From assembly GCA_002070965.1 (NCBI GenBank), contig MWEH01000095.1:6349-70348 (forward strand): a stretch of 64,000 bases of DNA, in the 5' to 3' direction. The translations under genes were made by a program, and so were the position numbers. The notes below the pieces were generated by a model that was not told the DNA's origin, searched no databases, and saw only the letters and a list, made by a program, of their open reading frames with translations. This DNA is from Firmicutes bacterium ADurb.Bin080 (GTDB lineage: Bacteria; Bacillota; Clostridia; Christensenellales; DTU072). This document shows, in pieces, positions 12,151-53,600 of this stretch (position 1 is its first letter; each line of letters begins with the position of its first letter).

Positions 12151-14298
12151 TTGGCAAAAAAGAATGACAATATAATGAATTCTGACAATCCTAACGAGTC
12201 CAAGAATGACAATATCTTAAATCCCAGTGTTTCAGACCCCGAGTCAGAAAGTCCAATTTTGGATAATCTTCCATCCGAGACCCAAACAGATATTTCTATT
12301 CAAGACACAAGCGAGGAACCCAATGTTCTCTCTGATGTCATTTCTAACGAACCTGCTGAGTCCGCTGAAGAAAGCGTTGATTCTGACACCGAAATACCTC
12401 CTCTTCTGGCAAAACCTGAAGAGCCTGCTGAGACTATTGAAGAAAGCGTTGATTCTGACTCCGAAATACCTCCTCTTCCGGCAAGACCTGAAGAGCCTGA
12501 GGTTTTTGTTGAGGGCAACTCTGAAGATGAATCATCCGAAATCTCTGAAATTGAAGGTGAGGCCCTTTCTGAAATTGAGCAGATAGAATATGAGCTTGAA
12601 AAACTTGAAAAAGAGATTGTACAGTCCGAAATAGATTCGGAAGGCGATTTCATTCCTGAGACAGAGGAAGAAAAACAAACAATGGCTGAAATTGAGCTTC
12701 TGGAAGTTGCTGCCAAAAAACAAACTAAAGAAGCAGATAAACTAACCAAGGAAATAATTCCTGCTCCAGAAGATGCAGATATGGTTGAAACTTACGTTCC
12801 AGAGTTTCAGAGAGAGCCTGGGACTCCTGAAAAACCCGCGGACGATGATGAGGAAGATCCTACACCAAAACCAGTAGAAGAAGAAAGTGAGGATTTACAA
12901 GCAGAGCTTGAAAGAATCTACGAAACTGGAGTTGGGACTGGGCTGGATGAATGGGATAGAGAAATTCTTCTCCCCGTTTTTGAGAACAGACTCAGAATGA
13001 CAAAAAATTCTACAAAGCTTTCTTACTCAAAACTAAAAAATCAAATTTTATCATTTAAGGGAATCTCCGCATCTTTCCAAGGACCCATCGAAAATTTCAG
13101 ATACAATAAAAAAATTGTTTTCAGATTCGCGATTAAAGATGATTCGGTTCAACTTTATTGTGCCCTTGACCCAGAGTCCATAGACAACAATGTATATCCG
13201 CACAAAAAGGCTAAAGGCGAGCACGCAAAGGCGACAGCGACAATACTTACTATAAACGATGAAAATTCTCTTAGAAATGCTGGGGAAATCATCACATTAG
13301 TTGCTGCAAAAATCGGAACTGCTGAAAAAGAACATCATGTTCCTGTAGCCTTCGCTGAAAGATACCCTATTAATCCCAACGGAGTCCTTTTTGGACAAGA
13401 AAGCAAACCACCCATCGATGGACAATATGATAACGATGATGACTATGCTCCGATATCCGGGGAAATAATAAACGGGATTATCGAAGCTAAGTTCGGAAAA
13501 TCCAAACTTCAGGAAAGGAAGGAGTTAAAGGGCAAGGAAGTTCTTGACGATTTGAGACAAACGGCAAACACAATTAAAGCTGCAGTAGCGCTCACAGAGC
13601 CCGTAGTATACTTCTTTGACGCGGCTTTAAACAAAGAAAGTTCTATTGAATATTTAAACATCCAACAGCTCTTGAACGATAAGTTTTTGGGGAAAATTGT
13701 TCCTCAGGTTTTCTTTGCAGTTGCTGAAGGAAGTGACAGAATTGAAAAATTTAATTTCCTATCTCTGGAATTTGCAGTAGAACAAGCTAATGCTTATCCA
13801 AGTACCCGATTTGTACTTGCATTAAGCTGCAGATTACTTATCAGGGATGAAGTCTTTGAAAGGCTGCTAAGAAACGCAAAAACCCTTAATGACAATTTGG
13901 TACTTGCGTTTGATTGTGCTCTTTTAGAATCACTTGGGGATATGGGTCTACAAAAAATTCGTAGGCTCAGAAACGAAGCAGGTGTTATGATTATGATAGA
14001 TAATTCAGAAAATGCAGGAATGCGTGTCTTGACAGAATATGATTTTGAATATATCAGATTTGACAGCAGATTCTACGCCGGAGACAATGCGAAACAACGG
14101 TCCCATCTTGAGATGATGACTGGATATGCAAGATCCCAAAATATCAAGACTACTTCCATCAACGTTCTTACTTTAAAAGAGGCCCAAATAATGGTTGAAA
14201 GAGGGGTCGATGTAATTCAAGGACCAGCCGCTTCAGAGCCAAAAAGAATAGCTACGCTGGCAATGAAAGGTGTTAAAAAACTTCCTCTTGGGAGGTAA
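12151..14298 (+). CDS. acidic-repeat protein with C-terminal degenerate EAL-like domain
   Basis: TTG start after AAAGGGG. The N-terminal ~260 aa are D/E/S/P-rich with a 24-aa tandem repeat. The C-terminal ~240 aa follow the EAL-domain motif order (EYL.., P..FF.VAE.., IMIDNSENAG for DDFGTGYS, IRFDSRFY for LKIDRSF, ..GVDVIQGPAASEP for G.D..QGY.F..P), but most catalytic residues are replaced. Confidence 0.6.
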   Translation: MAKKNDNIMNSDNPNESKNDNILNPSVSDPESESPILDNLPSETQTDISIQDTSEEPNVLSDVISNEPAESAEESVDSDTEIPPLLAKPEEPAETIEESVDSDSEIPPLPARPEEPEVFVEGNSEDESSEISEIEGEALSEIEQIEYELEKLEKEIVQSEIDSEGDFIPETEEEKQTMAEIELLEVAAKKQTKEADKLTKEIIPAPEDADMVETYVPEFQREPGTPEKPADDDEEDPTPKPVEEESEDLQAELERIYETGVGTGLDEWDREILLPVFENRLRMTKNSTKLSYSKLKNQILSFKGISASFQGPIENFRYNKKIVFRFAIKDDSVQLYCALDPESIDNNVYPHKKAKGEHAKATATILTINDENSLRNAGEIITLVAAKIGTAEKEHHVPVAFAERYPINPNGVLFGQESKPPIDGQYDNDDDYAPISGEIINGIIEAKFGKSKLQERKELKGKEVLDDLRQTANTIKAAVALTEPVVYFFDAALNKESSIEYLNIQQLLNDKFLGKIVPQVFFAVAEGSDRIEKFNFLSLEFAVEQANAYPSTRFVLALSCRLLIRDEVFERLLRNAKTLNDNLVLAFDCALLESLGDMGLQKIRRLRNEAGVMIMIDNSENAGMRVLTEYDFEYIRFDSRFYAGDNAKQRSHLEMMTGYARSQNIKTTSINVLTLKEAQIMVERGVDVIQGPAASEPKRIATLAMKGVKKLPLGR
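12352..12495 (+). repeat. in-frame 72-bp coding tandem repeat (2 copies)
   Basis: PAESAEESVDSDTEIPPLLAKPEE / PAETIEESVDSDSEIPPLPARPEE. The nucleotide copies at 12352-12423 and 12424-12495 are nearly identical. Confidence 0.95.
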
Positions 14299-14466: not shown

Positions 14467-15495
14467 ATGGCAAAAAAAGACAATGTGGATAAAGAGGTAT
14501 TATCACCTCAGGAGCAGATGAAATCACGTCCAGCTCCGGATGCCCCGGTGGATAACAAGGGCACTTTAATCCGCAAAGAAAAACCAAAGAAGATGAAAGC
14601 TCGTGGAAAGAACATGGTGGAAAATACCGATGAACTATCCGGGAAATATGAGTATGTCATAAAGCACAAAAAAGTTGAAAAGGAAACAAAGAATCGTAGG
14701 TTCATAAGAATACTTCTAATCTTCCTTCTTTCCCTTCTAATCCTTGGGGGCGGACTATGGGGTGTCACCGCATTTATTGAGTACAACAATTTCCGTGTTG
14801 TTGTCGATAGACCCGGTCAAAATATTTTTGCAATCAGCCCTGCAAGAAGCCTTCAAAATACAACTGAAATTTATAACATCGATGGCCCAAGATATATGGA
14901 TAACATAACCCTTATGGGAATGGAAGACGTGATACTAGAAATCGAGGATTCTGATGGAGCAACCTCGAGGGACAACTTGATCGCTGCAACTTTTTATCTA
15001 ACAAATATCACCGATGATTCTAGGCGTTATAGAGAGGTTGTAGACATATCTGAAACTTCTCAAGGGCTCGAAGAAGCGATCCGAATTATGCTAATAAAGA
15101 GCACTTATAATGCTGACGGAACAGTCAAAAAACGTGTATGCAATGTATACGCTGCACCTCATTCTTTTGATGAGTTTGGGGTCCCAATACCCGAAGCTGT
15201 GGTTCCCTTGGCAACACCTTCTTATTACACCGGAGATGAGCTCAGACAGCTCGAAGGGCTTGGTCTTTCGGACTCAGAAGACTCGGAAGAATGGATGTCA
15301 ATACCCTTCCTTTCCTCAACTTTAGTCCTCGATCAAAACGGAGATTCTGAGGGCACTCCCGAAGACTACATTATCCCCCCAGGAGGCAAAGTGAAGTATA
15401 CACTTTTAATCTGGCTAGAGGGAAATGACAAGGACTGCATTGACGATAAACTCGGGGGCAGAATGAAACTTTCCTTGACCTTTAGCGAGGGTTAA
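14467..15495 (+). CDS. membrane-anchored TasA/TapA-like protein (paralog of the two downstream fibre-subunit candidates)
   Basis: ~75-aa basic cytoplasmic N-terminus, then a TM segment ending GGGLWGVTAFIEYNN (resembles SipW-type GGGTFAYFxD). The C-terminus YTLLIWLEGNDKDCIDDKLGGRMKLSLTFSEG shares the W-L-E-G...(L/V)xFx motif with ORFs 16616 and 17619. Confidence 0.5.
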   Translation: MAKKDNVDKEVLSPQEQMKSRPAPDAPVDNKGTLIRKEKPKKMKARGKNMVENTDELSGKYEYVIKHKKVEKETKNRRFIRILLIFLLSLLILGGGLWGVTAFIEYNNFRVVVDRPGQNIFAISPARSLQNTTEIYNIDGPRYMDNITLMGMEDVILEIEDSDGATSRDNLIAATFYLTNITDDSRRYREVVDISETSQGLEEAIRIMLIKSTYNADGTVKKRVCNVYAAPHSFDEFGVPIPEAVVPLATPSYYTGDELRQLEGLGLSDSEDSEEWMSIPFLSSTLVLDQNGDSEGTPEDYIIPPGGKVKYTLLIWLEGNDKDCIDDKLGGRMKLSLTFSEG

Positions 15496-15499
15496 AATT

Positions 15500-15600
15500 C
15501 TCAAAAAATCCCATTTTTTAAATTTTTAATATTTTCTGCACATCCACTCAAAAAATCCCATTTTAAATTTTTATATTTTCTGCACATTCACTCAAAAAAT
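15500..15600. repeat. about 2.3 near-identical tandem copies (44-47 bp) just downstream of ORF 14467..15495
   Basis: ctcaaaaaatcccattttttaaatttttaatattttctgcacatcca / ctcaaaaaatcccattttaaatttttatattttctgcacattca / ctcaaaaaatt... Confidence 0.9.
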
Positions 15601-16204
15601 TATTGCCAAACAATCCCAAATTTTTTTATTTCACTCAATAATCTCGGATTGCTTTTTTAACTATCTAAACAACAAATCCTTTTCGGTTTTTTCGCAAGCT
15701 TCTCCTTCATCCCCAATCTCCAATAATATTCTTTTTCCTCTTCCACTTTTACTTTCCCTCTCCCGGACCATAACAATAAAAAAGTAAGCACAATTTGTAT
15801 ATAATGATTTAAAAGAAACTAAAATCTTTTTCAATAGAGTTCAAAATTAGCTTAAGAAAATTTTCTGATCCATCATTCTTAGCCTCTTAAGTTAATACAA
15901 ATTAACAATAGAAACATCCTGCTCAATCAATTCCCGTAGAAACCTTTTTGCTTAGCACATAAGGTCAAGACAGTTAACCGATCCTATTGTTTCCACCCCT
16001 AACAGCCCCTACAAAAATACTTATTTTGGTAATTTGTCGTGAGATAAAAAAATAGTAAATGAACACTCAAGTTTCACAATTTCTTAATTGACTTAATCGC
16101 GCACGTGTATAATAATAAGACAGGAATTGAATTTTTAGCTTGAAATTTGTCACTTTACTCAACTAAACTAAAAAAGCTTAAAAATCAAAAACACGCGTAC
16201 ACTG

Positions 16205-16233
16205 TTGTGTCGAATATGTATACTTGTTATAAT
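16205..16233 (+). promoter_or_regulatory. sigma-70/SigA-type promoter candidate for the fibre-subunit operon
   Basis: TTGTGT (16205-16210), 17-nt spacer, then TATAAT (16228-16233), preceded by TGn (extended -10). It would give a ~375-nt leader before the ATG at 16616. Confidence 0.55.
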
Positions 16234-16410
16234 TACATTATGAAAGGAGCCCTTCACTTACACTCAATTTTTTCGGATGAGGCTCAAAAATCAAAAAATC
16301 TTTCTTACGAAGTGTTGCAAAACCCACACTTTCTTACATTGATTACAATACTTTTTTGTGGGATTCCCTATCAAATACTACTGCTGAGGCAGAGTATAAA
16401 AAATCCATAA

Positions 16411-16551
16411 CGGAGGTTGGCTATGGTAAACAAATCTTTTCGGTTAAGACGGTCAACTAGTAACGTTTCGTTACTGGTTCGGTTCTGTGAGGTAGATAGC
16501 TAGTACCGCACTTACCTAATTGGTAAACGTAACGTACATGGCCAACCACCG
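16411..16551 (+). promoter_or_regulatory. structured 5' leader element (candidate riboswitch or cis-regulatory RNA, class unknown)
   Basis: Closing helix CGG-A-GGTTGGCTATG (16411-16425) pairs with CATGGCCAACC-A-CCG (16537-16551): 14 bp with one G.U and one A.A. It encloses hairpins CTAGTAACG-TTT-CGTTACTGG (16457-16477) and GTGAGGTA..TACCGCAC (16487-16511). Confidence 0.45.
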
Positions 16552-16615
16552 AATATAACCGCGAAACAGATCGCACAAAACAAAATTAAAAAATTCTAAT
16601 TTATAGGAGAAAAAA

Positions 16616-17467
16616 ATGAAAACAAAATCACTTTTTATATCAACAATCGCAATGGTAGTATTGCTAGTTGTTGCTCTCGCCACCGGCACCTTTGCATGGT
16701 ACACCTCACAAAGCACTGCTACTGGTGAGTCTGCAGCTCTTTCAACTGCGGCTTCTACTTCTGCTACAATTGCTCTTGCCTGGTCTCCATCAGGAACAGG
16801 CAGTCAAGTTACTTTCGGTGTCTCCAATGTTGACCCAATGATACCGACTACGGAACTTGCAACTTATGACACGGGAAGTGGGGGAGTTCCTCCTGTGTTC
16901 GAAAGCGGTGTGCTTGGTGTTACTGGTGGGGGACAAGAGTACTTTAGGACAGTCAGCAGCCCTGCCTCTCCTTGGAAACAAAAGGATTCAACTAATGCTT
17001 TCAACACACTTTATCTCAGAAACTTAAACCCTAATGCTGGGGCAAAAATTACTACCTCTGTGACTCTTCCGACCACAGGAAACAGTGGGGAAACCATAGT
17101 TGATAACAATGACATACTTCGTGTCGCTATATACTCTGTCGTGGGAGACGCAACCGAGCATACTCTTATTGGCGTATGGGGCGTTGCTTCTGCTGGAGAC
17201 GCTTACTATGGTGATCTTACAGCATATCCTGGAACTGGCGAGTACACTGACTATTTAGTCGGAACATTCATGAGTGGTGCTTCCACACTCAGTTTAACAG
17301 GTTCCGGAGCCGCCAGTGTTACTTTTGATGTTCCAAAAAGCACGAATGCAGTTATTGAAATATACGCATGGCTTGAAGGAACAGTCCTTGACAACGATAG
17401 ATCTGCTTTAAGCACTACCGGAGATGAAGTAACTTTTAATGTCACTTTCTCTGCTGCAGAAATTTAA
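16616..17467 (+). CDS. secreted TasA-like fibre-subunit candidate with SipW-dependent-type signal peptide
   Basis: N-terminus MKTKSLFISTIAMVVLLVVALATGTFAWYTSQS matches the SipW-cognate pattern (h-region + G-T-F/Y-A-x-F/Y-S/T). S/T/G/A-rich mature part. C-terminal IEIYAWLEGTVLDND...VTFNVTFSA motif. Good RBS (AGGAG). Confidence 0.65.
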   Translation: MKTKSLFISTIAMVVLLVVALATGTFAWYTSQSTATGESAALSTAASTSATIALAWSPSGTGSQVTFGVSNVDPMIPTTELATYDTGSGGVPPVFESGVLGVTGGGQEYFRTVSSPASPWKQKDSTNAFNTLYLRNLNPNAGAKITTSVTLPTTGNSGETIVDNNDILRVAIYSVVGDATEHTLIGVWGVASAGDAYYGDLTAYPGTGEYTDYLVGTFMSGASTLSLTGSGAASVTFDVPKSTNAVIEIYAWLEGTVLDNDRSALSTTGDEVTFNVTFSAAEI

Positions 17468-17507
17468 TTCTACAATCATAGATACTTTCCGTCTTAATTA
17501 ACCGAAC

Positions 17508-17537
17508 CACCCCAGCGGGCAAAAGCCCGCTGGGGTG
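17508..17537 (+). terminator. strong intercistronic hairpin (attenuator or partial terminator) between the two fibre-subunit genes
   Basis: Perfect 13-bp stem CACCCCAGCGGGC / GCCCGCTGGGGTG with an AAAA loop. It is followed by AGAAAAGATTTT, so there is no immediate T-run. Confidence 0.6.
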
Positions 17538-17618
17538 AGAAAAGATTTTCACCGGCTAGAATAAAGTGAAGAGCACACTTCATTGTGGGATAGGGGGAAG
17601 TCAAAGAAGGTAAGATTA

Positions 17619-18470
17619 ATGTCAATAACCAATCCGAAATTTTCATTAAGATCATCGTCTCAGTTGTTTTTCACGACTATAGCGATGATTTTGTTGTTAG
17701 TAGTGGGACTTTCCACTGCTACTTTTGCATGGTTTTCGGCAAATAGCAGAGTGGGATCTGGGTCAATTATTTTTGAAGCTAGAAACACCGCCTCAGCAAG
17801 CATTTATTTGGGCTGGGTTCCAGATTCTGTAGAAAGTAGTATAACTTTCTCTGCCCCAGAGGAAATAGACCCTATGGTGCCCTCTTTTGCACCTATCAAT
17901 ACTACGAGAGTAGATGACTTTACGAATAATTTTTATACTGCTAGCATTAGTCCTGAAGGAGACAATGGTGAACCTTCTGTTTTCAATGAAAATGGATTTA
18001 GGGTCCTGCCGTATAAAGCATACCAAGGCCCCCCAGATTCGGTTGAGACCCAGGATTACTTTTATGTAATAAATGGAAGCGCTGAACCAACTATTGTCGT
18101 AATGCAGGTAACTTTCGAAGGAGATAACGCGGCATTACTTAGAGTTGGGCTGTTTGTGAATGAGACATATGTTGGAACGATAAGACCCTATGATGTAGAC
18201 CCAATGGCAACGACTCATTGCGGACCGATTGTTGAGGGTGGTAACCCATATAGCGATGGCTTTATTGAGATTCCAACAGATATGGCTTTATCATTTGGCT
18301 TGGGAGGAAAAGTTGATGGCTCAACCGATCATTTTGTGAGGGTTGAGGTTGTTTGCTGGTATGATGGAGTTTGGCTTGATGAAGATTTTATGGATGGAAA
18401 TGCGGAAATAGCGTTGGTATTTAGAGGACAAAAGGGTTTTAGTAATCCAAATGTTGTAACTAATCCGTAA
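17619..18470 (+). CDS. second TasA-like protein with SipW-dependent-type signal peptide
   Basis: Start set at the ATG at 17619 (MSITNPKF..). Signal region TTIAMILLLVVGLSTATFAWFSANS. C-terminal VEVVCWYDGVWLDEDFMDGNAEIALVFRG motif is paralogous to ORF 16616. Confidence 0.6.
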   Translation: MSITNPKFSLRSSSQLFFTTIAMILLLVVGLSTATFAWFSANSRVGSGSIIFEARNTASASIYLGWVPDSVESSITFSAPEEIDPMVPSFAPINTTRVDDFTNNFYTASISPEGDNGEPSVFNENGFRVLPYKAYQGPPDSVETQDYFYVINGSAEPTIVVMQVTFEGDNAALLRVGLFVNETYVGTIRPYDVDPMATTHCGPIVEGGNPYSDGFIEIPTDMALSFGLGGKVDGSTDHFVRVEVVCWYDGVWLDEDFMDGNAEIALVFRGQKGFSNPNVVTNP

Positions 18471-18674
18471 AGTTTAGTTTCTTTTTCATAAATAATTTTG
18501 CCTTTTTCCAGTTATTATTATAAAAAAGTTGCTATTTACTTCTTTATTTAGCGCCTGCGCGCGCATAAAGTTAATTTAGTATTGTGTTTTGTTTGTGAAT
18601 ATAGTATATTAATCATATAAATGCATCGCTTACTCTATTGATATTAGCGAATGCTTGTGGAAAGGAGAACTTTA

Positions 18675-19439
18675 ATGGGGATACAAAAAAAAGCTAAAGT
18701 ATCCAAGCTCAATGAAAAGCAGAAAAAGATCCTTAACATCATAATAACTGTTGCTCAAGTAGTTTTGATCCTAGTAGCTGTAGTCGCTTCAATTATCATT
18801 CTTGTCAATCCAACCGGTGCTACAATTAGAGAAAAGGGGATAACTCTGATGCCGGTTCTATCCGACTCAATGGATGGAGATCAAGAAGACAGTTTCAAAG
18901 AGGGAGATCTGTTGATTGTTCATGCTCCTGATGCCAAAAAGTATGACCCTACAAAATTGGTTGTAGGTGATATCATTACTTTTGAGTGGACCGTAGCCGG
19001 ACAAAAGATATATAACACTCACAGAATTGTCGATGTGGATGTTTTTGGAGATTCTGTAGTATATACTGCTAGAGGTGATAATCCTAATATCTTAGCAACT
19101 GATACACAGGTTGTTCCTGCAAACAAAGTACTTGGAATTTGTACTGGAAGCTTGAAAGGGGTTGGAAAAACTATAAGTTTCTTACAAACACCTTTGTATT
19201 TCTTATTGGTTATATTACTCCCCTTAGCTTTGTTGTTCATATATAACATCGTGTTGTTTGTAAAAATGATCATGGAACAAAAGTTGGCAAAAGTTGGTGC
19301 ACTTGGCGGAAGCGAAGAAGATGAAGCCACAAGAAAACAAAGAATAATCGATGAATATCTTGCCTCACAACAAAAGCAGGAAGAAAATAAAGTAGAAGTA
19401 GAAGAGACTGAGGCAGAAGAGCCCGGGGACGAGGAATAA
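18675..19439 (+). CDS. SipW-type (ER/archaeal-type) signal peptidase I
   Basis: S26 boxes LSDSMDG (Ser nucleophile), NTHRIVDV (His) and ARGDNPNILATD. N-terminal and C-terminal TM segments and an acidic tail. Start set at the ATG at 18675 after AAAGGAG. Confidence 0.8.
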   Translation: MGIQKKAKVSKLNEKQKKILNIIITVAQVVLILVAVVASIIILVNPTGATIREKGITLMPVLSDSMDGDQEDSFKEGDLLIVHAPDAKKYDPTKLVVGDIITFEWTVAGQKIYNTHRIVDVDVFGDSVVYTARGDNPNILATDTQVVPANKVLGICTGSLKGVGKTISFLQTPLYFLLVILLPLALLFIYNIVLFVKMIMEQKLAKVGALGGSEEDEATRKQRIIDEYLASQQKQEENKVEVEETEAEEPGDEE

Positions 19440-19470
19440 CAATTAGGTCCGGGCGTACAAAAAGATAATA

Positions 19471-19494
19471 ACGCCCTGTACGCAGGGCGTTTTA
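19471..19494 (+). terminator. rho-independent terminator after the first sipW-like gene
   Basis: ACGCCCTG / CAGGGCGT stem with a TACG loop, followed by TTTT. Confidence 0.75.
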
Positions 19495-19558: not shown

Positions 19559-21118
19559 ATGTTTGGAAATTTCTTAAAAGACTTTTTAGGTATATTCTTT
19601 GGCGGAATATTAGGAATATTTTGGTCTAGCAAAGCATCTGATAATTATGGGGGAATTTTTGGAGCCCTATTCCAGATGTTTAATTTCCCTGCGTATATAG
19701 AAATATTTAAAAATTATGGGGATAAGTTGTCGGCTGGCCTTTGGGTTGCTGCAGCATTTTGCGTGCTACTGGTTCTTGCTGCATTGGTGGCAATTGTCTG
19801 GGTTGTTCTCTTCTTTGGTAAAAGACTTTGGAAGAAAATTGTTGGAGACAAGGTTTTAAATCAGGACTTAATGGATGAAATTGATAATCTTAAGAGAGAA
19901 TTGATTAAGGTTACCAGAGAAAAAGATAGGATTTTGGGATTGAAAATCGCATATCAGGGATATGATGTGACAGAGGGAGAAGAAGGCGAAAGTACCTCGG
20001 GGGCGAAGAAAGAAGGCGAAAGCAGATTCTATAAATTAACTGAAGTTGATTCTTTCTATTCAGATCCCGAATACGTAGCAAGAGAATATGACATTTCTTG
20101 GAATTTGGAAGAACTCTGCGACAGATTTAGAAATTATGCTGCAAATAATCCGGACAGACCTTGGCGTCATCTATATTATGAGCCAAAAATTATTAGATTA
20201 TTCTTTGCATCACTTGCAACTACTCGTCTGGTTATTCTTCAGGGTATATCTGGTACAGGTAAGACATCCCTCCCTGAATGTATGGGACACTTTTTCAAGA
20301 ATGATACTACGATTGCTTCAGTTCAGCCCTCTTGGCGTGATAGAACAGAGCTATTTGGATACTTTAACGAGTTTACAAAGAGGTTTAACGAAACAGAAGT
20401 TTTGAGAGCATTGTATGAATCAACATATAATGAGGACATTCACTTGGTCGTCTTGGACGAAATGAACATAGCCCGTGTCGAATACTACTTCGCAGAAATG
20501 TTATCCATCTTGGAAATGCCTTCAAGAGATCAGTGGATAGTTGACTTGGTTCCTAGCGGTTGGCCTTCCGACCCTAAACACGTTTTAAAAGGTCGTTTTA
20601 GACTTCCTGAGAATGTTTGGTATTGCGGAACAGCAAACAACGACGACTCCACCTTTGCTATATCAGATAAGGTTTATGATAGAGGTATGCCAATAAATAT
20701 CAACAGTAAAGCTGCAGCGTTTGAAGCTCCACTAACTAGTGGCCTTCCAGTTAATTACAAGTATCTTGAAAGTTTATATAAACTTGCCATGGAAAAACAT
20801 AGAGTTTCGGATGAAAACTTGCAGAAGTTTGAGGAAATGGACAATTATGTTATCGAACATTTCAGATTGGCTTTTGGTAACCGTATTGTTAAGCAGCTGA
20901 GAGAATTCGTTCCCGTTTATGTTGCTTGTGGCGGAACAGAAATTGATGGACTTGATTACGTCCTTTGTAATAAAATCCTACGCAAGTTTGAATCCTTAAA
21001 CTTGGCATACATCCGTGACGAGGTCGATGACTACATCCTTTATTTGGATAATCAATTCGGCGAAGAAAATATGGGTGAATGTAAAGATTATCTCCGCCGC
21101 TTGAAGAAGTTGTTCTAG
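19559..21118 (+). CDS. membrane-anchored McrB-family (AAA_5-like) AAA+ NTPase
   Basis: Hydrophobic N-terminus (FLGIFFGGILGIFW.. and LWVAAAFCVLLVLAALVAIVWVVLFFG), then a short coiled segment. Walker A GISGTGKTS, SVQPSWRDRTELFGYFN, Walker B and McrB-like signature VVLDEMNIARVEYYFAEMLSILE, and GTANNDDSTF. Confidence 0.75.
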   Translation: MFGNFLKDFLGIFFGGILGIFWSSKASDNYGGIFGALFQMFNFPAYIEIFKNYGDKLSAGLWVAAAFCVLLVLAALVAIVWVVLFFGKRLWKKIVGDKVLNQDLMDEIDNLKRELIKVTREKDRILGLKIAYQGYDVTEGEEGESTSGAKKEGESRFYKLTEVDSFYSDPEYVAREYDISWNLEELCDRFRNYAANNPDRPWRHLYYEPKIIRLFFASLATTRLVILQGISGTGKTSLPECMGHFFKNDTTIASVQPSWRDRTELFGYFNEFTKRFNETEVLRALYESTYNEDIHLVVLDEMNIARVEYYFAEMLSILEMPSRDQWIVDLVPSGWPSDPKHVLKGRFRLPENVWYCGTANNDDSTFAISDKVYDRGMPININSKAAAFEAPLTSGLPVNYKYLESLYKLAMEKHRVSDENLQKFEEMDNYVIEHFRLAFGNRIVKQLREFVPVYVACGGTEIDGLDYVLCNKILRKFESLNLAYIRDEVDDYILYLDNQFGEENMGECKDYLRRLKKLF

Positions 21119-21182: not shown

Positions 21183-23168
21183 ATGGCTCAATCACAGTAT
21201 GATGAGATTATTTTCCAGATAAATAATCTCCTTAAACAGGAGAAGATTTATCCATTGTACATGGGGTCAATTGCCGAAGGCAAAAACGACTATAAAATCA
21301 GCCAGGTTTACACAAAAAAGAACTATGATGACAGCTGGATAACTACCCTTGAAGAGTGTATTGTTCCTCTAGACACCATAGTAAGAAACCCCAGAAAGTT
21401 CATTATTATCGAAGAAGATATAGTCGATGTATCTTTAGCTAGATCCATTTCTATTGAATCAGTCAAGCATTTGGCTCAACATACCAACTTGATAGCAGCC
21501 GTTAAGAAAGATGGCTCAATTATCCCTTCAAAAATTCTTAATACCAGCAAGGAAGAGAGCTTTGAGATATATGAAAACCGTTTTATATACACCCTCTTAT
21601 TAAAGGTTAACGAGTTCGTTGAAAGAAGAACCGGGATTGTAAAAAAAGCATTGATGCAAGCTGGGGCACTTGGGGTCGACATCAAGTCAAATTTTAAAAT
21701 TAATGACTTCAGCGTAGACTTCACAATGAGCAATTCAGCAAACTTCCCTTTCGAGGCAGCCTTCAAGAAACAAGGAGACGAACACTCTGACCTTGAAAGA
21801 ATTGCATATATTACTCGTATTTACCAGGACTTCTTGTCCTCTCCATTTGCAAAAGAGCTAAAAAACTGCGCACTTGTTCGTCCCCCTATTACTCGTACTA
21901 ACGTAATTCTAAAGGATCCAAACTTTAAAAAAGCCCTAACTTTATGGCAGTTCGTTGAAAGTGCGGAAAAAATGGACTTCCGAATAGATACAGTAACTGA
22001 GGCGACTGATTTAAACGCCACCCTTACAGAAAAATATCGTGGTATCGTTTTCTTAAATACTGTTCTTCTTCAATCTATTGCCGAAACCAGACAAGAAAAT
22101 GAATCCTTAGAAAAAACGCTTAAACAAGACCAGGTTTTAGCAGATGATTATGTTACGAAAAATATAGATGACTTTGTCCCGGATGATTTCCCGCAGCTTA
22201 AGATGGATCTGAACGAAGTCAGACGAATATATTATCGTGTTCCAGGGCAAAAAACCCTTAGTTTAACAGAAATTGCAAAAGTTAATGCAGCTTTAGACAG
22301 GGTATACAGACAATATAGAATTAACAAAGCCAGAGATGACAGTATCACCAAAAAGAGATTAATTGCTAAACAGCTTGAAGAAGAAGCTCAAGCTAAACGA
22401 CTAGCTCTTAGGGAAGCTAGAGACATAGAAAGAGCAAAGAAACAAGAGGAAGCAAGGAGACGACTTGAACAAAGAAAGCTTGAAGCCGAAAGAAGAGCTG
22501 CACTTGAACGTGCTGAACAAGAGAGATTAGAAGCCGAAAGAAGAGCTGAAGAAGAGAGAATTCTTTTAGAGGCAGAAAAAGTACGTCTTGAGCAAGAAAG
22601 AAAGCGTCAAGAAGAAGAAAAACGAATTGAAATAGAAAAACAAGCTGCCGAAGAAGCGCATAAACTGAAAATTATTGAAGAACAAAAGATGGCCGCGCGT
22701 ATCCAGCAGGAAATGGAAGAATATAAAGCACGTCTTGAATCTGAAGAAAAGAGAATTGAGCTTGAACTGATTGAGAGACAGGAAAACTATTGGAAGAAGC
22801 AAAAAGAACTTCAGTTAAGATTACAAGTTGAAGATGATAAGACAAAGATATTTGAAAAGGAAACCTTCTATTTCTCGAAAGTTAAAAAAGATGAGAAGAA
22901 CAAAATGACAAAGCTTGAAATGCTTCGCAATACCCTCAGAAATGCGATGATCGTGGAGCATTACCAGGAAATTGAGAGCATATTAGAGTCTGCAAAAGAA
23001 CATTATTCCGAAGAACAATTAAAGGAAATCCGCGCCGAAATAAAAGCCACTGAAAAAGCTGAAGAAAAGAAAAGAAAAAAGAAAGAAAATAAAGGGCGCA
23101 AAAACGGACTTCAAAAGCTGACTGGGTTGTTTTCAAAGAAGGATAAAGATATAATAGAGAATAAATAA
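21183..23168 (+). CDS. McrC-N-terminal-like (DUF2357-like) protein fused to a long E/K/R-rich coiled coil; no nuclease domain recognised
   Basis: The N-terminal ~330 aa contain EESFEIYENRFIYTLLLKVNEFVERR (the ENRF-type motif of McrC-like partners). aa ~385-560 are almost pure E/K/R/A/L/Q heptad-like sequence (LEAERRAALERAEQERLEAERRAEEERILLEAEKVRLEQERKRQEEEKR..). Basic K-rich tail. Confidence 0.5.
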   Translation: MAQSQYDEIIFQINNLLKQEKIYPLYMGSIAEGKNDYKISQVYTKKNYDDSWITTLEECIVPLDTIVRNPRKFIIIEEDIVDVSLARSISIESVKHLAQHTNLIAAVKKDGSIIPSKILNTSKEESFEIYENRFIYTLLLKVNEFVERRTGIVKKALMQAGALGVDIKSNFKINDFSVDFTMSNSANFPFEAAFKKQGDEHSDLERIAYITRIYQDFLSSPFAKELKNCALVRPPITRTNVILKDPNFKKALTLWQFVESAEKMDFRIDTVTEATDLNATLTEKYRGIVFLNTVLLQSIAETRQENESLEKTLKQDQVLADDYVTKNIDDFVPDDFPQLKMDLNEVRRIYYRVPGQKTLSLTEIAKVNAALDRVYRQYRINKARDDSITKKRLIAKQLEEEAQAKRLALREARDIERAKKQEEARRRLEQRKLEAERRAALERAEQERLEAERRAEEERILLEAEKVRLEQERKRQEEEKRIEIEKQAAEEAHKLKIIEEQKMAARIQQEMEEYKARLESEEKRIELELIERQENYWKKQKELQLRLQVEDDKTKIFEKETFYFSKVKKDEKNKMTKLEMLRNTLRNAMIVEHYQEIESILESAKEHYSEEQLKEIRAEIKATEKAEEKKRKKKENKGRKNGLQKLTGLFSKKDKDIIENK

Positions 23169-23207: not shown

Positions 23208-23948
23208 ATGATTGAATATAAATCGAAAGATTCTATTTCTAAACAAAAAAATCCAAAAAAGGGCGTAAAACTCGCGATAAATATCGCTACTTGGGTAGTG
23301 TTTATCATAATTTTTCTTTTAGTTTTTTCCGTACTTATTCAAAGTATAATGGGAGTTACTCCAAACCTTTTTGGCTACAGGTTTTATTTTGTACTTACTT
23401 CCAGTATGTCTCCCGAACTAAACCCTGGTGATGTTATTTTAAGTAAGTTATATAATGATGAAAAGAATATACCTGAACTAAAAGTCGGGGATGTGGTCAC
23501 TTACATAATTCCGGAGGGACAACCTAGAGCCGGATACCCTAATACTCATAAAATTATTACAGCTCCTTATGAAGACGAAGGGAAAACATATATAGTAACT
23601 AAGGGAGTTAATAACGTTATAGCCGATGCCCCCACTCCAGTAGAAAATGTGGAAGCTGTAATGGTACGCAAGTCTTCTTTTATGTCAGTATTGTATGGCT
23701 GGTTTATCGGAGGGAATACAGTGCTGATTATTCTGTTTATTGTCCCCTTCCTATTCATCATCGGATCTTTGATCTACCGATTGGTAGTTACTCTGAAATC
23801 AAAATCTACTCAACCCGTTCCTCCTGTCGAAGATGAGGATTACAAAAAGAAAGTAATAGAGGATTACTTGAAAAATACTGAATCAAAAAAGAAAGAGGAT
23901 CCGGATAATGAGTTGCCGCCTTTATCAGAGGATGAAAAAGAAGATTAG
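23208..23948 (+). CDS. second SipW-type signal peptidase I
   Basis: S26 boxes LTSSMSPEL, NTHKIITA and TKGVNNVIADAP. N- and C-terminal TM segments and an acidic tail. It lies 39 nt downstream of the coiled-coil gene with no terminator between them. Confidence 0.8.
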   Translation: MIEYKSKDSISKQKNPKKGVKLAINIATWVVFIIIFLLVFSVLIQSIMGVTPNLFGYRFYFVLTSSMSPELNPGDVILSKLYNDEKNIPELKVGDVVTYIIPEGQPRAGYPNTHKIITAPYEDEGKTYIVTKGVNNVIADAPTPVENVEAVMVRKSSFMSVLYGWFIGGNTVLIILFIVPFLFIIGSLIYRLVVTLKSKSTQPVPPVEDEDYKKKVIEDYLKNTESKKKEDPDNELPPLSEDEKED

Positions 23949-24090
23949 TTTTTATTTTTCTCTCGAAAAGACATATTCATAAGCCTAAAAATTGTTCGAA
24001 AAATGATCTTTTATATGGAGTATAAAATGTTTTGTTTTATGCTCCGTTTTTTTGTTATATAATCTATACATAATAAATAGGAGTATTTAT

Positions 24091-50605: not shown

Positions 50606-53600
50606 TTAGTCTTCGTTGTTTTGGGGGTCTTCTACTATATTGCCACCTGTATTTTCTTCTGCCCAGTTTTCATTTAGTGGAAAAGGACTGTCTTCTACTC
50701 TTTCATCTAATTCCCTTCCATACTCCTCTACTGTCCCATAAATAAGAGGCGTTTCAAGAGACTTGAGAGTGTTTTCCTCGCCTATGTATTTTCGAGTTGT
50801 TTTCTTTTTATTCCACTCTCTTATTGGGGGAATAATCCTAATTTGCTTCCCTTCTATTACTCCCCTTATTTGATTGGTGAAGAAATGGTCGGTCTCATCG
50901 AATATGTTGTCCTCATCAATCTTATCAATATTTGCATCCTTCAAAGCCTTGAATTCTTCGGGAATCTTATACTTCCTATTAATTATATCATAAGCGATAG
51001 GGACTACATAAAGGGTAACAAATGTCGCATAACCTAACCCTCCAACCATAGCTATTGCTATTGGAGCGAGTAGCAGACCATAATCGGTCCGATTTGTAGC
51101 CATAATAATCATAGCTGAAATAGTTGTTAAAGCAGTCAAGAGAATTGGTCTAAGCCTATCCACGCCTGTTTTCAGCAATGCTTCTCGCTTATCTATTCCA
51201 GACTCAATAACCTTGTCGGTGTAATCAACGAAAACAATCCCGTTATTAACCACAACCCCCATGAGAATTATAATCCCAATAAGGGACATTATGTTAATTG
51301 AAGTACCGGTAAGAAGCATCAATGCAAAAGACCCAGTAAACGCTAATGGAACGGTAAACATTACTATGAAAGGTTTTTTCCAGCTTTGGAATTGAGCAAC
51401 CATTATAAGGAAAATCAATATAATTGCAGCTCCCAAAATCAAGTAAAGATTATTGAAGACCTCATCCATTATTCCAATCGCTTCTTTAGTATCAACCGAA
51501 ATAGTTGAAGGTTTACTTTCATTATATACCCCCACTATATCATTAATATCGTTAACAGCATCACTTTCCGAGTAAGCACCGTCATATTCGACAGTTAAAG
51601 TGATGATCTTTCTTCCCTCAGAGTGTTTAATCCCCGTGTATCCGGAGGTCTTTACAAAAGATGCCGGAATATCCTCCGAAAATCCAGAACGGTATAAAAC
51701 ATTCCCTGAATTATCTTTTGAAAAACAATCTTCTGTAAGAAGCTTGTATAAAGGAACGGATTTAGTGGTAGCTCCTGTCCCAAGAACATCACTTCCCTCA
51801 ATATTAAGGGTCATGAGGTCAATCTCATCCCTTTTTATCGAATAGAATTGGGTCATCTGTTCTACGGTTATCCCTTGTGTTGAGTACGTTATATCGTGTA
51901 GTCCCGTATCCTCGTTCTCGGTTACCACGGCATAATCATATGAGAAAGCCCCATCTTCAAAACTTACCGGTATCATTTGATTCGTCCCTATTACCTCGAC
52001 GAATCCCGAGTCTTTTACAAATAAAGTGTTTCCGCTTGTATTTTTTACAAAATATTGGTTCTCTTCCCCACCGTAGTCATAGTTGTTATTGACAAAGATC
52101 TTTATCGGGGTTCCATTTCTCTCCCCTAACAACCAACTTGTGTTTTCGTATATTTCAGAATAAATCATTACATCGTAATCGGTTTTCACTGAGTTAGTAT
52201 CATCCGCATACAGTCTTAAAGTGTGGGAAGAGGATACTGATTTTAATGCATCCGAAATTTGCAAGTATACCTGGCCAGTTGTAAGCCCGTATTTTGAAGC
52301 TTCATCTTTATCTACTATTAGCTTATATTCTTCTGCGGCTGTGTCCACATTCTTTTTAACTGATACTATCTTTTCAGAAGCACTTATCGCTAAAGCAAGT
52401 TTATCTGCTTCTTCAATCATTTGGTCATAATCATTTCCGAAAACATAAATGCTATATTCTGTGTCCACAAAGGACCCGGAAAAGGACATTATTGAACTAA
52501 CTGAAACGGAGGTAGTAAATAATTTTCCCCCAACGGCATCTAGAGATTTTTCTATTTCTTCACATAAATCAAAAGGATCCATCGTTCTTTCTTTTTCCGT
52601 TACTAAGGAAAGAGAGGCCGAAAGTGCGCCACCTCCTATTGAAAAACCACCTACACTCATCCCTGTATCTGAATATATTGCCGCCGCTTCAATATCTGGA
52701 TAGTTATTAAAAATATCTAATGCTTTTGTAACTATCTCAGCCTCTATATCCTCAGTGGTTAAATATCCTTCATCCATAACCGATAAACCAAAGTTTCTCT
52801 CATCAATCGCATCTTTGTTTATGTCAAAGCTAACACTCACCGATCCCATATATGTTTTCGGAAAGACTTCTGTTTTGGACACAAAAAAGCCGGAAAGAGT
52901 CATTCCAACAAATAAGATTAAAGTTATCGACAAGACAATCCATTTATTGTTTAGCGAGAAATTCAATGATCTAATATATGCCTTCTTCACAGACTTAATA
53001 AACCTTGAGTCATTCTTGGGGAGTTCTTTAATAATGTATGCTGTAGAAATGGGAATAACCGTTAGAGCTACAAATAAGGATGCCAAGAGTGAAAAACATA
53101 CGGTTAAAGCCATATCAGTAAGAATTTCTCTTACTAATCCACTAATAAATACTATCGGAAGAAAAACAACTATTGTAGTCATAGTGGAGGCAAAAATCGC
53201 TCCTGTCATTTGCTTCGCACCTTGAATAGCGGACTCGAATCGGGTTTTTCCTTGTAATCTCAACCTTTGAATGTTTTCTAAGACAACGATTGAATTGTCC
53301 ACCAACATCCCAACTCCAAGAGTTAATCCACCCATAGACACTATGTTAAGGGTAATTCCTGCAAAGTACATTAGAACAAAAGTGAATACCACGGAAAAGA
53401 CAATGGATATAGAAACCGCTATTGTGGGTTTAATCCTCTTAAAGAAAATCAAAAGAACTGCAGCTGCAAGCACTGCTCCCCAAAGCAAACTTTCAAGAAC
53501 AGAGTTCATCATAAACCCTATCATACGACCATCATCCGAAATCACGTTAAAAGTAAAACTTTCTCTTTCTGCTTTGATATTTTCTAATAATGCTTTGATT

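Follow-up and report, generated by a model that had tools for sequence, protein, structure and literature searches.

A putative major/minor pair of fibre subunits in a CoCoPALM-type gene cluster of a Christensenellales bacterium

Introduction

Two neighbouring genes, here called A and B, lie in a 64,000-nucleotide (nt) window of contig MWEH01000095.1 of Firmicutes bacterium ADurb.Bin080 (Christensenellales); the window is the whole stretch of DNA that was analysed. Both genes encode secretory precursors, a perfect hairpin separates them, and the locus raises the question of what the two proteins build and with which partners. An initial annotation had proposed that they are paralogous SipW substrates, with a highly expressed major subunit followed by an attenuated minor one. 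On balance, we favour the reading that a CoCoPALM-type operon makes an extracellular protein fibre, of which A is the major and B a minor structural subunit. What is new is that the A/B pair belongs to a conserved eight-gene cluster of this type, which consists of the genes for an EAL protein, the membrane protein X342, A, B, the signal peptidase Sip1, a McrB-like nucleoside triphosphatase (NTPase), a DUF2357 coiled-coil protein with resemblance to McrC, and a second signal peptidase, Sip2. The coordinates of the features are collected in Table 1.

Paralogy of A and B

The initial annotation had described the two open reading frames (ORFs) as paralogous, each with a basic n-region, a hydrophobic stretch and a TFAW-type motif, and had noted related C-terminal motifs and a first protein rich in S, T, G and A. 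Closer comparison bore these points out. Both precursors start with a short basic n-region and one hydrophobic segment (residues 6-24 in A and 16-34 in B), which is followed by GTFAWYT in A and ATFAWFS in B. The shared form is T-F-A, the predicted cut, and then W-(Y/F)-(S/T); a six-frame scan of the 64 kb found the motif in A and B and in no other real ORF. BLASTP aligned the two proteins with 40% identity over the first 77 residues, which extends beyond the signal peptide (E 3e-16). Orthologue sets for A-type and B-type profiles were drawn from 48 related loci, which are identified below by L-numbers. With these profiles, hhalign aligned residues 1-281 of A to residues 11-271 of B (probability 100%, E 9.4e-43) and placed the C-terminal motifs in register, IEIYAWLEGTVLDND..VTFNVTFSA in A against VEVVCWYDGVWLDED..IALVFRG in B. 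Because the profiles align over the full length with these motifs in register, A and B are, at the level of sequence, full-length paralogs. Their mature parts differ in composition, with an S/T/G/A content of 47% in A and 30% in B. In a mechanical listing the ORF of gene B runs from an alternative TTG start (17583..18470); the ATG at 17619 is the gene-caller start in the close relative L050.

Homology searches returned 117 homologs for A and 21 for B, all from metagenomes and metagenome-assembled genomes (MAGs) of Clostridia/Christensenellales. None carries a name except one JGI entry, 'peptide with SipW-like signal peptide', and scans of A, B, and X342 against Pfam, NCBIfam, and PADLOC gave no significant match. 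Among the A homologs, identity is 84% in the signal (MKTKSLFISTIAMVVLLVVALATGTFA) and 30% in the mature domains, and within the mature protein the N-terminal segment shows slightly higher conservation (40%) than the globular part (30%). The residues T10, M13, V19, T25, A27, W28, P74, M75, N136, G186, W252, and G255 are invariant in the A family. A third subunit class, termed C-type, is encoded between X342 and the B-type gene in L006, L008, L012, L017, L022, L023, L031, L039, and L045, and its signals end in ST-ATYAWY-S-A-(I/N)-N-R. The motif is conserved in all A, B, and C paralogs of the 48 loci, and in the A/B-like paralogs the signal end is almost invariantly L-S-T-A-T-F-A-W-(F/Y)-(S/T). 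The mature N-terminus of the B- and C-type proteins follows the alternating hydrophobic pattern N-x-V-x-V-S-x-I-x-F-x-A, which would fit a donor strand.

SipW-type signal peptides

Six annotated TasA/CalY proteins from Bacillus plasmids, retrieved with a TasA probe, served as the reference for genuine SipW substrates. Their signals end in G-G-G-T-(Y/F)-A-Y-F-S-D, so the SipW-type motif first proposed for A and B matches the G-T-(F/Y)-A-Y-F-S-D of real TasA/CalY proteins. Identity among the six is 83% in the signal and 63% in the mature part, which is the same imbalance as in the A family. The donor strand of TasA consists of residues 28-38, the first residues after SipW cleavage (PMC9674648), and SipW therefore cuts after T-W-A at residue 27. 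By analogy, the equivalent site in A would lie after T25-F26-A27. The NCBIfam model TIGR04088 (cognate_SipW) gave weak matches in 10 of 54 family members (best E 6.4e-4) and no match to the A and B of the window.

The initial annotation had treated cleavage by a type I peptidase as incompatible with SipW dependence. This needs a small correction, since SipW belongs to the type I signal peptidases and a T at -3 together with an A at -1 also conforms to the general type I rule. It is highly probable that A and B are exported and are cleaved as substrates of the adjacent, operon-encoded SipW-type peptidases.

The strongly conserved N-terminus also allows a type IV-pilin-like reading, in which the hydrophobic segment is kept and forms the filament core, the NTPase extracts the filament from the membrane, and the two peptidase (S26) homologs have another role. 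The contrast between 84% identity in the N-terminal 27 residues and 30% in the rest is as in pilins and archaellins, the NTPase with its transmembrane anchor is encoded by the best conserved gene of the operon, and the basic leader MKTKS with its hydrophobic stretch resembles, as read from the sequence, an archaeal class III signal. Genuine SipW substrates, however, show equally high signal conservation, and the invariant residues of A lie at the outer end of the segment, where small residues at -3 and -1 (T-F-A before W) form an S26 cut site. Moreover, the cluster holds no prepilin (aspartic) peptidase, platform protein, or PilB/FlaI-type ATPase, and both of its peptidases keep the catalytic Ser (SM) and His, which are invariant in 54 Sip orthologs. 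The structure models described below give a beta-sandwich that is all-beta after the signal and not the alpha-beta pilin fold. We regard a pilin-like assembly as quite unlikely.

Structure models and strand exchange

AlphaFold2 with a family alignment modelled A as a beta-sandwich. The mean predicted local distance difference test (pLDDT) score was 80.6 for the full-length protein and 85.1 for the mature protein, and the predicted template modelling score (pTM) of the latter was 0.85. The first 20 mature residues are disordered in the monomer model (pLDDT ~31). When the model was compared with 350,542 chains of the Protein Data Bank (PDB) by Foldseek, AbpA of the Pyrobaculum bundling pilus (7UEG, 7ueg_A) took ranks 1-2 with E 3.6-4.5e-3 and a Foldseek probability of 0.93 with the mature model and 0.97 with the full-length model. 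The Pyrodictium cannula subunit CanA (9H8B) took rank 5 and the TasA fibre (8AUR, 8aur_A) rank 11. In these models, the presence of all three known TasA-type donor-strand filament families among the top 11 matches for A is suggestive. Whether the fibre would form by strand exchange is, in our judgement, evenly balanced.

Several observations weigh against a TasA-like fibre. The comparison with TasA that the initial annotation had drawn stands for the signal motif but not for the mature domains: when the A, B, C, and merged profiles were compared with the six TasA/CalY proteins by hhalign, the probabilities were 0.5-2.8%, below the 3% mark throughout, and the alignments covered the signal peptide only. 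Pfam hmmscan (E up to 1) found no family match for A or B, PF12389 (Peptidase_M73) included, and phmmer and the family profile retrieved only chance matches to antibody light chains from the PDB sequences. The Foldseek matches are weak, with no E at or below 1e-3 and TM-scores of 0.27-0.40, and similar scores went to generic jelly-rolls, among them the ligand-binding domains of ephrin receptors, carbohydrate-binding modules, and receptor-binding proteins of phages. The hairpin between A and B is not a canonical intrinsic terminator, because it is without a U-tract. We know of no TasA-like system that needs an NTPase, and the analogy may miss the real mechanism. Finally, all carriers are uncultured MAGs, and the system is known here from genes alone. 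That A and B work like TasA or AbpA is thus put forward as the best hypothesis, and membership of the TasA family is not established.

Some of the same results agree with a second reading, in which the jelly-roll proteins A and B are exported and processed by SipW without polymerising, for example as secreted or surface-bound adhesins, glycan-binding modules, or a coat on the wall, and in which the NTPase pair serves export or quality control. Many of the top Foldseek matches are non-filament jelly-rolls, the proteins have no sequence link to TasA, and the first-position subunits are much longer in L006, L019, L025, and L030 (381-523 residues), which suggests extra domains. On the other hand, the mature N-terminus is disordered yet conserved and carries the alternating hydrophobic residues typical of donor strands, the filament families rank high among the 350,542 chains, and several paralogs together with a membrane-anchored one mirror the major, minor, and anchor sets of pili. 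We consider the non-polymerising reading improbable.

Major and minor subunits and the intergenic hairpin

The hairpin between A and B has the sequence CACCCCAGCGGGC-AAAA-GCCCGCTGGGGTG, with 13 perfect pairs and about -30 kcal/mol for the hairpin alone. It had been described at the outset as perfect and without an immediate T-run, and this was confirmed. The A-B intergenic region folds with -54.2 kcal/mol (z = -5.7), which none of 200 shuffles equalled, and the hairpin is the sole perfect inverted repeat of at least 13 nt with a short loop in the window, where it ranks as the strongest hairpin. No U-tract directly adjoins the stem on its 3' side, where the tail reads AGAAAAGATTTTCA / AGAAAAGAUUUUCA, and a terminator consensus scan did not call the hairpin. 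Its position is kept among relatives but its sequence is not. Compensatory changes occur in L049 and L050, a different 12-bp stem (CCAACACCCAGT...) is present in L001, L005, and L051, and L003 has yet another stem. When all intergenic regions of the cluster were scanned, 22 loci had a hairpin of -15 to -30 kcal/mol behind their first subunit gene, and these hairpins comprised about 17 unrelated sequences; a comparable hairpin follows X342 in 0 of 35 cases, the coiled-coil gene in 0 of 18, and the EAL gene in 1 of 26. Few hairpins of the related loci have an adjoining U-tract.

Strong stem-loops, which are Rho-independent terminators or 3' stabilisers, occur after major pilin genes such as fimA, papA, and pilA. 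The arrangement here is alike in that a strong stem-loop stands right after the putative major subunit gene, ahead of the minor-subunit or machinery genes, at a position conserved across lineages, and it differs in that the stem is without an adjoining U-tract. Attenuation may take place at this hairpin.

For the hairpin alone, other roles can be proposed. It may bring transcription to a full stop, with B under its own promoter, or it may be a 3' or 5' stabiliser that protects against ribonucleases or a processing site, and leave the A:B ratio unchanged. A conserved box that reads TAGAAT/TAGAGT across lineages lies in the stretch from the hairpin to B; in the window it appears as TAGAATAAAG and opens a second conserved hairpin, so that a separate weak promoter for B is equally possible. 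The lack of a U-tract directly after the stem in any lineage also agrees with these roles. Against an own promoter for B, no convincing -35 box stands at the proper spacing in other lineages, as read from the alignment. We consider these roles possible but less likely than not.

Gene arrangement and rates of evolution bear on the relation of the two subunits. Where a clade has several paralogs, the A-type gene follows the EAL gene on its own, with the hairpin behind it, and the C- and B-type genes lie within 10-80 nt of X342 and the NTPase gene. Identity to L001 is 84% for the NTPase, 78% for the McrC-like protein, 53% for the EAL protein and for X342, 49% for Sip1, 50% for Sip2, 50% for the flanking glycerate kinase, 46% for B, and 35% for A, which makes A the fastest-evolving gene of the cluster. 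A major/minor arrangement would be expected to combine a fast-evolving, separately expressed first subunit with slower ones linked to the machinery. The layout proposed in the initial annotation is in this way supported by the recurrent hairpin, the rapid evolution of A, and the B-type genes beside the machinery, and a major/minor expression logic of A and B appears probable.

Leader of gene A

Gene A is preceded by a leader of ~140 nt with nucleotide-level conservation in L001, L005, and L051; the A proteins of these loci are only ~35% identical to that of the window. It contains the invariant blocks TTTTCGGTTAAGACGG and CTGTGAGGTAGATAGCTAGTACC. A GGAGG sequence and the ATG at 16424 open a 26-codon ORF (MVNKSFRLRRSTSNVSLLVRFCEVDS), which reads MAKNYFRLRRYASDARLLDMYCEVDS in L051. 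RNAalifold predicted 38 pairs in the leader, of which 4 show compensatory changes, as well as a long-range helix in which GGAGGTTGGC is sequestered. A riboswitch, above all one for c-di-GMP (cyclic di-GMP), was sought in the 1.1 kb upstream of A and in the A-B spacer, and Rfam gave no match there, whether at the gathering score or with E up to 1. The element may serve as a leader peptide or as a riboregulator for the major subunit gene, and it is restricted to the clade of the window.

With the sigma-70-like promoter at 16088-16116, the 5' untranslated region of gene A would be ~500 nt long. A similar TTGACA box stands at the equivalent place in L001, L005, and L051. The spacer between X342 and A (15496-16615) is unusually long at 1.1 kb; the equivalent spacer has 650 nt in both L001 and L051, and L003 has one of 263 nt.

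Comparison with known fibre systems

The tapA-sipW-tasA operon of B. subtilis and the sipW-tasA-calY genes of B. cereus share with the A/B locus a dedicated peptidase of the endoplasmic reticulum (ER) type, a 27-residue signal, and a signal end of G/A-T-(F/W/Y)-A followed by an aromatic residue, F/Y, and S/T. In both cases, the signal is far more conserved than the mature domain. The tasA/calY systems combine a jelly-roll subunit, whose donor strand comes from the first mature residues, with paralogous major and accessory proteins; for A, such a fold is predicted by the model. The window differs in having two peptidases instead of one, 3-5 paralogs, and an NTPase pair with an EAL protein. Furthermore, the +1 residue is A, F, or Y in TasA/CalY but W in the proteins of the window, and the mature domains are without detectable sequence homology.

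Among the systems studied by experiment, sipW-bsaA-bsaB of C. perfringens comes nearest to the A/B pair. BsaA polymerises, BsaB does not, and the pair has a dedicated SipW; in the model for this system, the subunits stay tethered to the membrane through their signals until SipW cuts (PMC11580942). The sipW-bsaA-bsaB-bsaC operon (Obana 2020; PMC11580942) is likewise clostridial and combines SipW with two remote TasA-like paralogs. BsaA polymers are locked by an N-E-K isopeptide triad, whereas the A family has no invariant K or E, and a BsaA-type triad was rejected for A on this ground. Export of the Bsa proteins leans on type IV pilus proteins, and the operon of the window has a McrB-like NTPase.

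AbpA/AbpB (7UEG; PMC9245690) and CanA (9H8B) are the best structural matches to the A model and have an N-terminal donor strand. Their kinship with TasA is visible at the profile and structure level only, and the operon holds a second, anchoring protein. They differ from the system described here in being archaeal and in having no dedicated peptidase or NTPase in the operon, and the Foldseek E of ~4e-3 to A comes with the low TM-scores given above.

The conserved gene cluster

A scan with one genome per GTDB species gave 44 loci, which were annotated by phmmer using the proteins of the window. The cluster recurs in ~40 Christensenellales/Clostridia MAGs, with 1-4 A/B-like paralogs per locus. 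Individually inspected distant homologs likewise lay within this gene set in every case. Gene order varies by clade, with X342 lying between the NTPase and coiled-coil genes in L028 and L042, for example, and the set stays together despite this shuffling, which argues for one system. This larger context was missed in the initial annotation: the operon is of the McrB/McrC-like CoCoPALM type and not a simple operon of the tapA-sipW-tasA type.

Table 1 Features of the A/B locus in the 64,000-nt window
Feature	Position	Strand	Description
EAL-domain protein	12151..14298	+	PF00563, E 1.3e-15; syntenic in 26 loci; first cluster gene
X342	14467..15495	+	Bitopic membrane protein without TFAW motif; candidate membrane anchor or nucleator
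Sigma-70-like promoter	16088..16116	+	TTGACT-N17-AATAAT, overlapping a TATAAT
Conserved structured leader element	16412..16555	+	Upstream of gene A; embedded 26-codon ORF 16424..16504
Gene A	16616..17467	+	283 amino acids; ATG, AGGAG 7 nt upstream; precursor of putative major fibre subunit; predicted signal residues 1-27, mature from W28; modelled jelly-roll beta-sandwich
SipW-type signal peptide of A	16616..16696	+	MKTKSLFISTIAMVVLLVVALATGTFA; predicted cleavage between TFA and W
Mature N-terminal extension of A (W28-A50)	16697..16765	+	Candidate donor strand
Perfect 13-bp GC-rich hairpin, AAAA loop	17508..17537	+	Candidate leaky terminator or 3'-end stabiliser
Second hairpin, AU-rich, covarying	17556..17588	+	Opens with conserved TAGAATAAAG (-10-like box); in gene B leader
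Gene B	17619..18470	+	283 amino acids from ATG; precursor of putative minor subunit; predicted signal residues 1-37, mature from W38
Sip1	18651..19439	+	ER/archaeal-type (SipW-like) signal peptidase I, two transmembrane segments; NF046067 E 2e-16, TIGR02228 E 3e-12
McrB-like AAA+ NTPase	19559..21118	+	519 amino acids; membrane-anchored; transmembrane residues 67-85
McrC-like partner	21183..23168	+	661 amino acids; N-terminal DUF2357; long E/K/R-rich coiled-coil-like region
Sip2	23208..23948	+	Second ER/archaeal-type signal peptidase I; NF046067 E 9e-16, TIGR02228 68.3 bits

The EAL protein has an acidic, repeat-rich N-terminus and is a putative c-di-GMP input. The Pfam EAL match begins at profile position 38 of 236, and the domain may therefore be a degenerate, c-di-GMP-binding form and not an active one. 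Within the gene, a 72-nt tandem repeat (2.1 copies, 12352-12499) encodes a duplicated acidic peptide (..EESVDSD.EIPPL.A.PEEP..). X342 consists of a basic cytoplasmic N-terminus of 80 residues, a transmembrane segment (residues 82-100), and an outer part that was compared with the subunits by profile. B aligned to X342 with a probability of 95.6% (E 1e-8), and the merged profile aligned to the C-terminus of X342 with 96.6% (E 6e-10), matching IWLEGNDKD..LSLTFS with AWLEGTVLD..VTFSA. X342, which had been named as a possible relative, is accordingly a distant paralog of A and B by profile comparison; hhalign of its profile against TasA/CalY was not significant. A 44-nt tandem repeat (2.2 copies, 92% matches) at 15500-15600 sits right behind the stop codon of X342.

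Sip1 and Sip2 are encoded 180 nt and 4.7 kb downstream of the A/B pair and are syntenic in ~40 loci; the cut-off of TIGR02228 is 51.85 bits. The NTPase matches McrB in the PDB (6hz4, E 2e-4, residues 212-400) and in NCBIfam (E 5e-4), as well as the PADLOC model PDC-M26A (E 3.7e-38). Its Walker A, Walker B, and NNDD motifs are invariant, and GTANNDDS can be read as NxD or NxxD. More than 8000 clusters at 90% identity match the NTPase, none with a functional name. A charged helical, coiled-coil-like stretch at about residues 98-129 was recognised by eye, and the N-terminus gave no FtsB/DivIC match in Pfam at E up to 10. DUF2357 (PF09823, gathering score 23.3 bits) was found in 16 of 18 orthologs of the McrC-like partner (best E 1.8e-10), and the protein of the window scored 24.3 bits. 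The coiled-coil character of this protein was judged by eye from the translation, and no coiled-coil predictor was run. A Pfam search of its C-terminal half found no nuclease or other domain, and the profile of its N-terminal domain gave no match in the PDB.

The CoCoPALM clade has been described in two sentences, with its analysis deferred, as a McrB-type GTPase fused to an FtsB-like transmembrane and coiled-coil region (Bell et al. 2024, PMC11090510). The cluster agrees with this description in its McrB-family domain, its DUF2357 McrC homolog with a charged coiled-coil-like region, and its association with signal peptidases. The NTPase of the window has an N-terminal transmembrane segment and a short charged stretch but no Pfam FtsB match, and its NNDD fits both NxD and NxxD. 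Absent from the published description (PMC11090510), and reported here, are the genes of the subunits and of the EAL protein, as well as X342, the signal motif, and the RNA elements. A literature search found no later CoCoPALM paper, and the text supplements of Bell et al. gave no CoCoPALM detail.

The same clade has been placed beside the CoCoNuTs (Bell et al., eLife 13:RP94800, PMC11090510), which brings up the reading that the locus serves conflict or defence as part of the CoCoNuT/McrBC lineage, with A and B as surface sensors, decoys, or effectors. In favour of it, the PADLOC candidate defence model PDC-M26A (E 4e-38) and McrB both match the NTPase, the partner carries the McrC N-terminal domain DUF2357, and A evolves fast. 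However, the McrC-like protein has no detected nuclease domain, and the NTPase shows 84% identity where a flanking enzyme shows 50%, unlike defence genes with their fast turnover. The window and L001 also share their housekeeping flanks, with RlmL, cation efflux, and M20 genes on one side of the cluster and glycerate kinase, metalloenzyme, and PNP genes on the other, so that the locus is a vertically inherited chromosomal one, which argues against a mobile defence island. We consider a defence role very unlikely. The narrower proposal that the NTPase/coiled-coil pair is an inserted defence module was rejected, since its genes interleave with the peptidase and X342 genes across clades and the flanks are conserved.

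A proposed assembly pathway

For the favoured fibre reading, the following pathway can be outlined. A and B are made with an N-terminal signal-anchor, as their sequences show, and would be exported through Sec. By analogy with TasA/CalY, the two operon peptidases would release them after T-F-A, so that the mature proteins start with W-(Y/F)-(S/T). The models predict a mature jelly-roll beta-sandwich whose first ~20 residues are unstructured in the monomer, and these residues may complement the next subunit by entering it as a donor strand, in the manner of TasA, BsaA, AbpA, and cannulae. From its conserved anatomy, gene A would be expressed separately and highly, with a strong ribosome-binding site, the structured leader of ~500 nt, and a hairpin that ends or stabilises most transcripts; less B would be supplied by read-through or by a weak promoter at the conserved TAGAAT box. 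X342, a membrane-anchored paralog without the cleavage motif, is a likely base or nucleator similar to TapA or AbpB. The NTPase, its DUF2357 partner, and the EAL protein probably couple nucleotide hydrolysis and the c-di-GMP state to assembly or export.

In the common view, assembly of TasA-like fibres takes place outside the cell and needs no source of energy. In the present cluster, putative TasA/AbpA-like subunits are genetically tied to a membrane-anchored NTPase pair that is extremely conserved, more so than neighbouring housekeeping genes, and no TasA-like system with such a motor is known to us. As a tentative and rather speculative proposal, a McrB-type GTPase ring and a DUF2357 'plug' could drive or gate the release of subunits by the two peptidases, and maybe push the fibre through the wall, under c-di-GMP control, in a nucleotide-powered donor-strand fibre pathway of Gram-positive bacteria. 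If true, this would be a class of pilus biogenesis distinct from chaperone-usher, type IV, type V, and sortase systems and from passive TasA assembly, and the motor of a restriction system may have been reused for cell-surface assembly. Christensenellales and related Clostridia are abundant in the gut and largely uncultured, and to our knowledge essentially nothing is known of their surface biology. With A and B, the analysis provides the 'cargo' that was lacking for CoCoPALM systems, of which little more than the name had been published, and it defines their sorting motif, the subunit classes A, B, and C with the anchor X342, and the conserved RNA elements.

Other features of the window

Canonical-looking terminators, each with a stem and a T-run, follow Sip1 (19470-19491, a bidirectional palindrome) and Sip2 (24015-24047), and the cluster may therefore be divided into at least three transcription units, namely A, B with Sip1, and the NTPase with the McrC-like protein and Sip2. 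Elsewhere in the window, a very large ORF of 1898 amino acids lies on the reverse strand (50606-56302, -).

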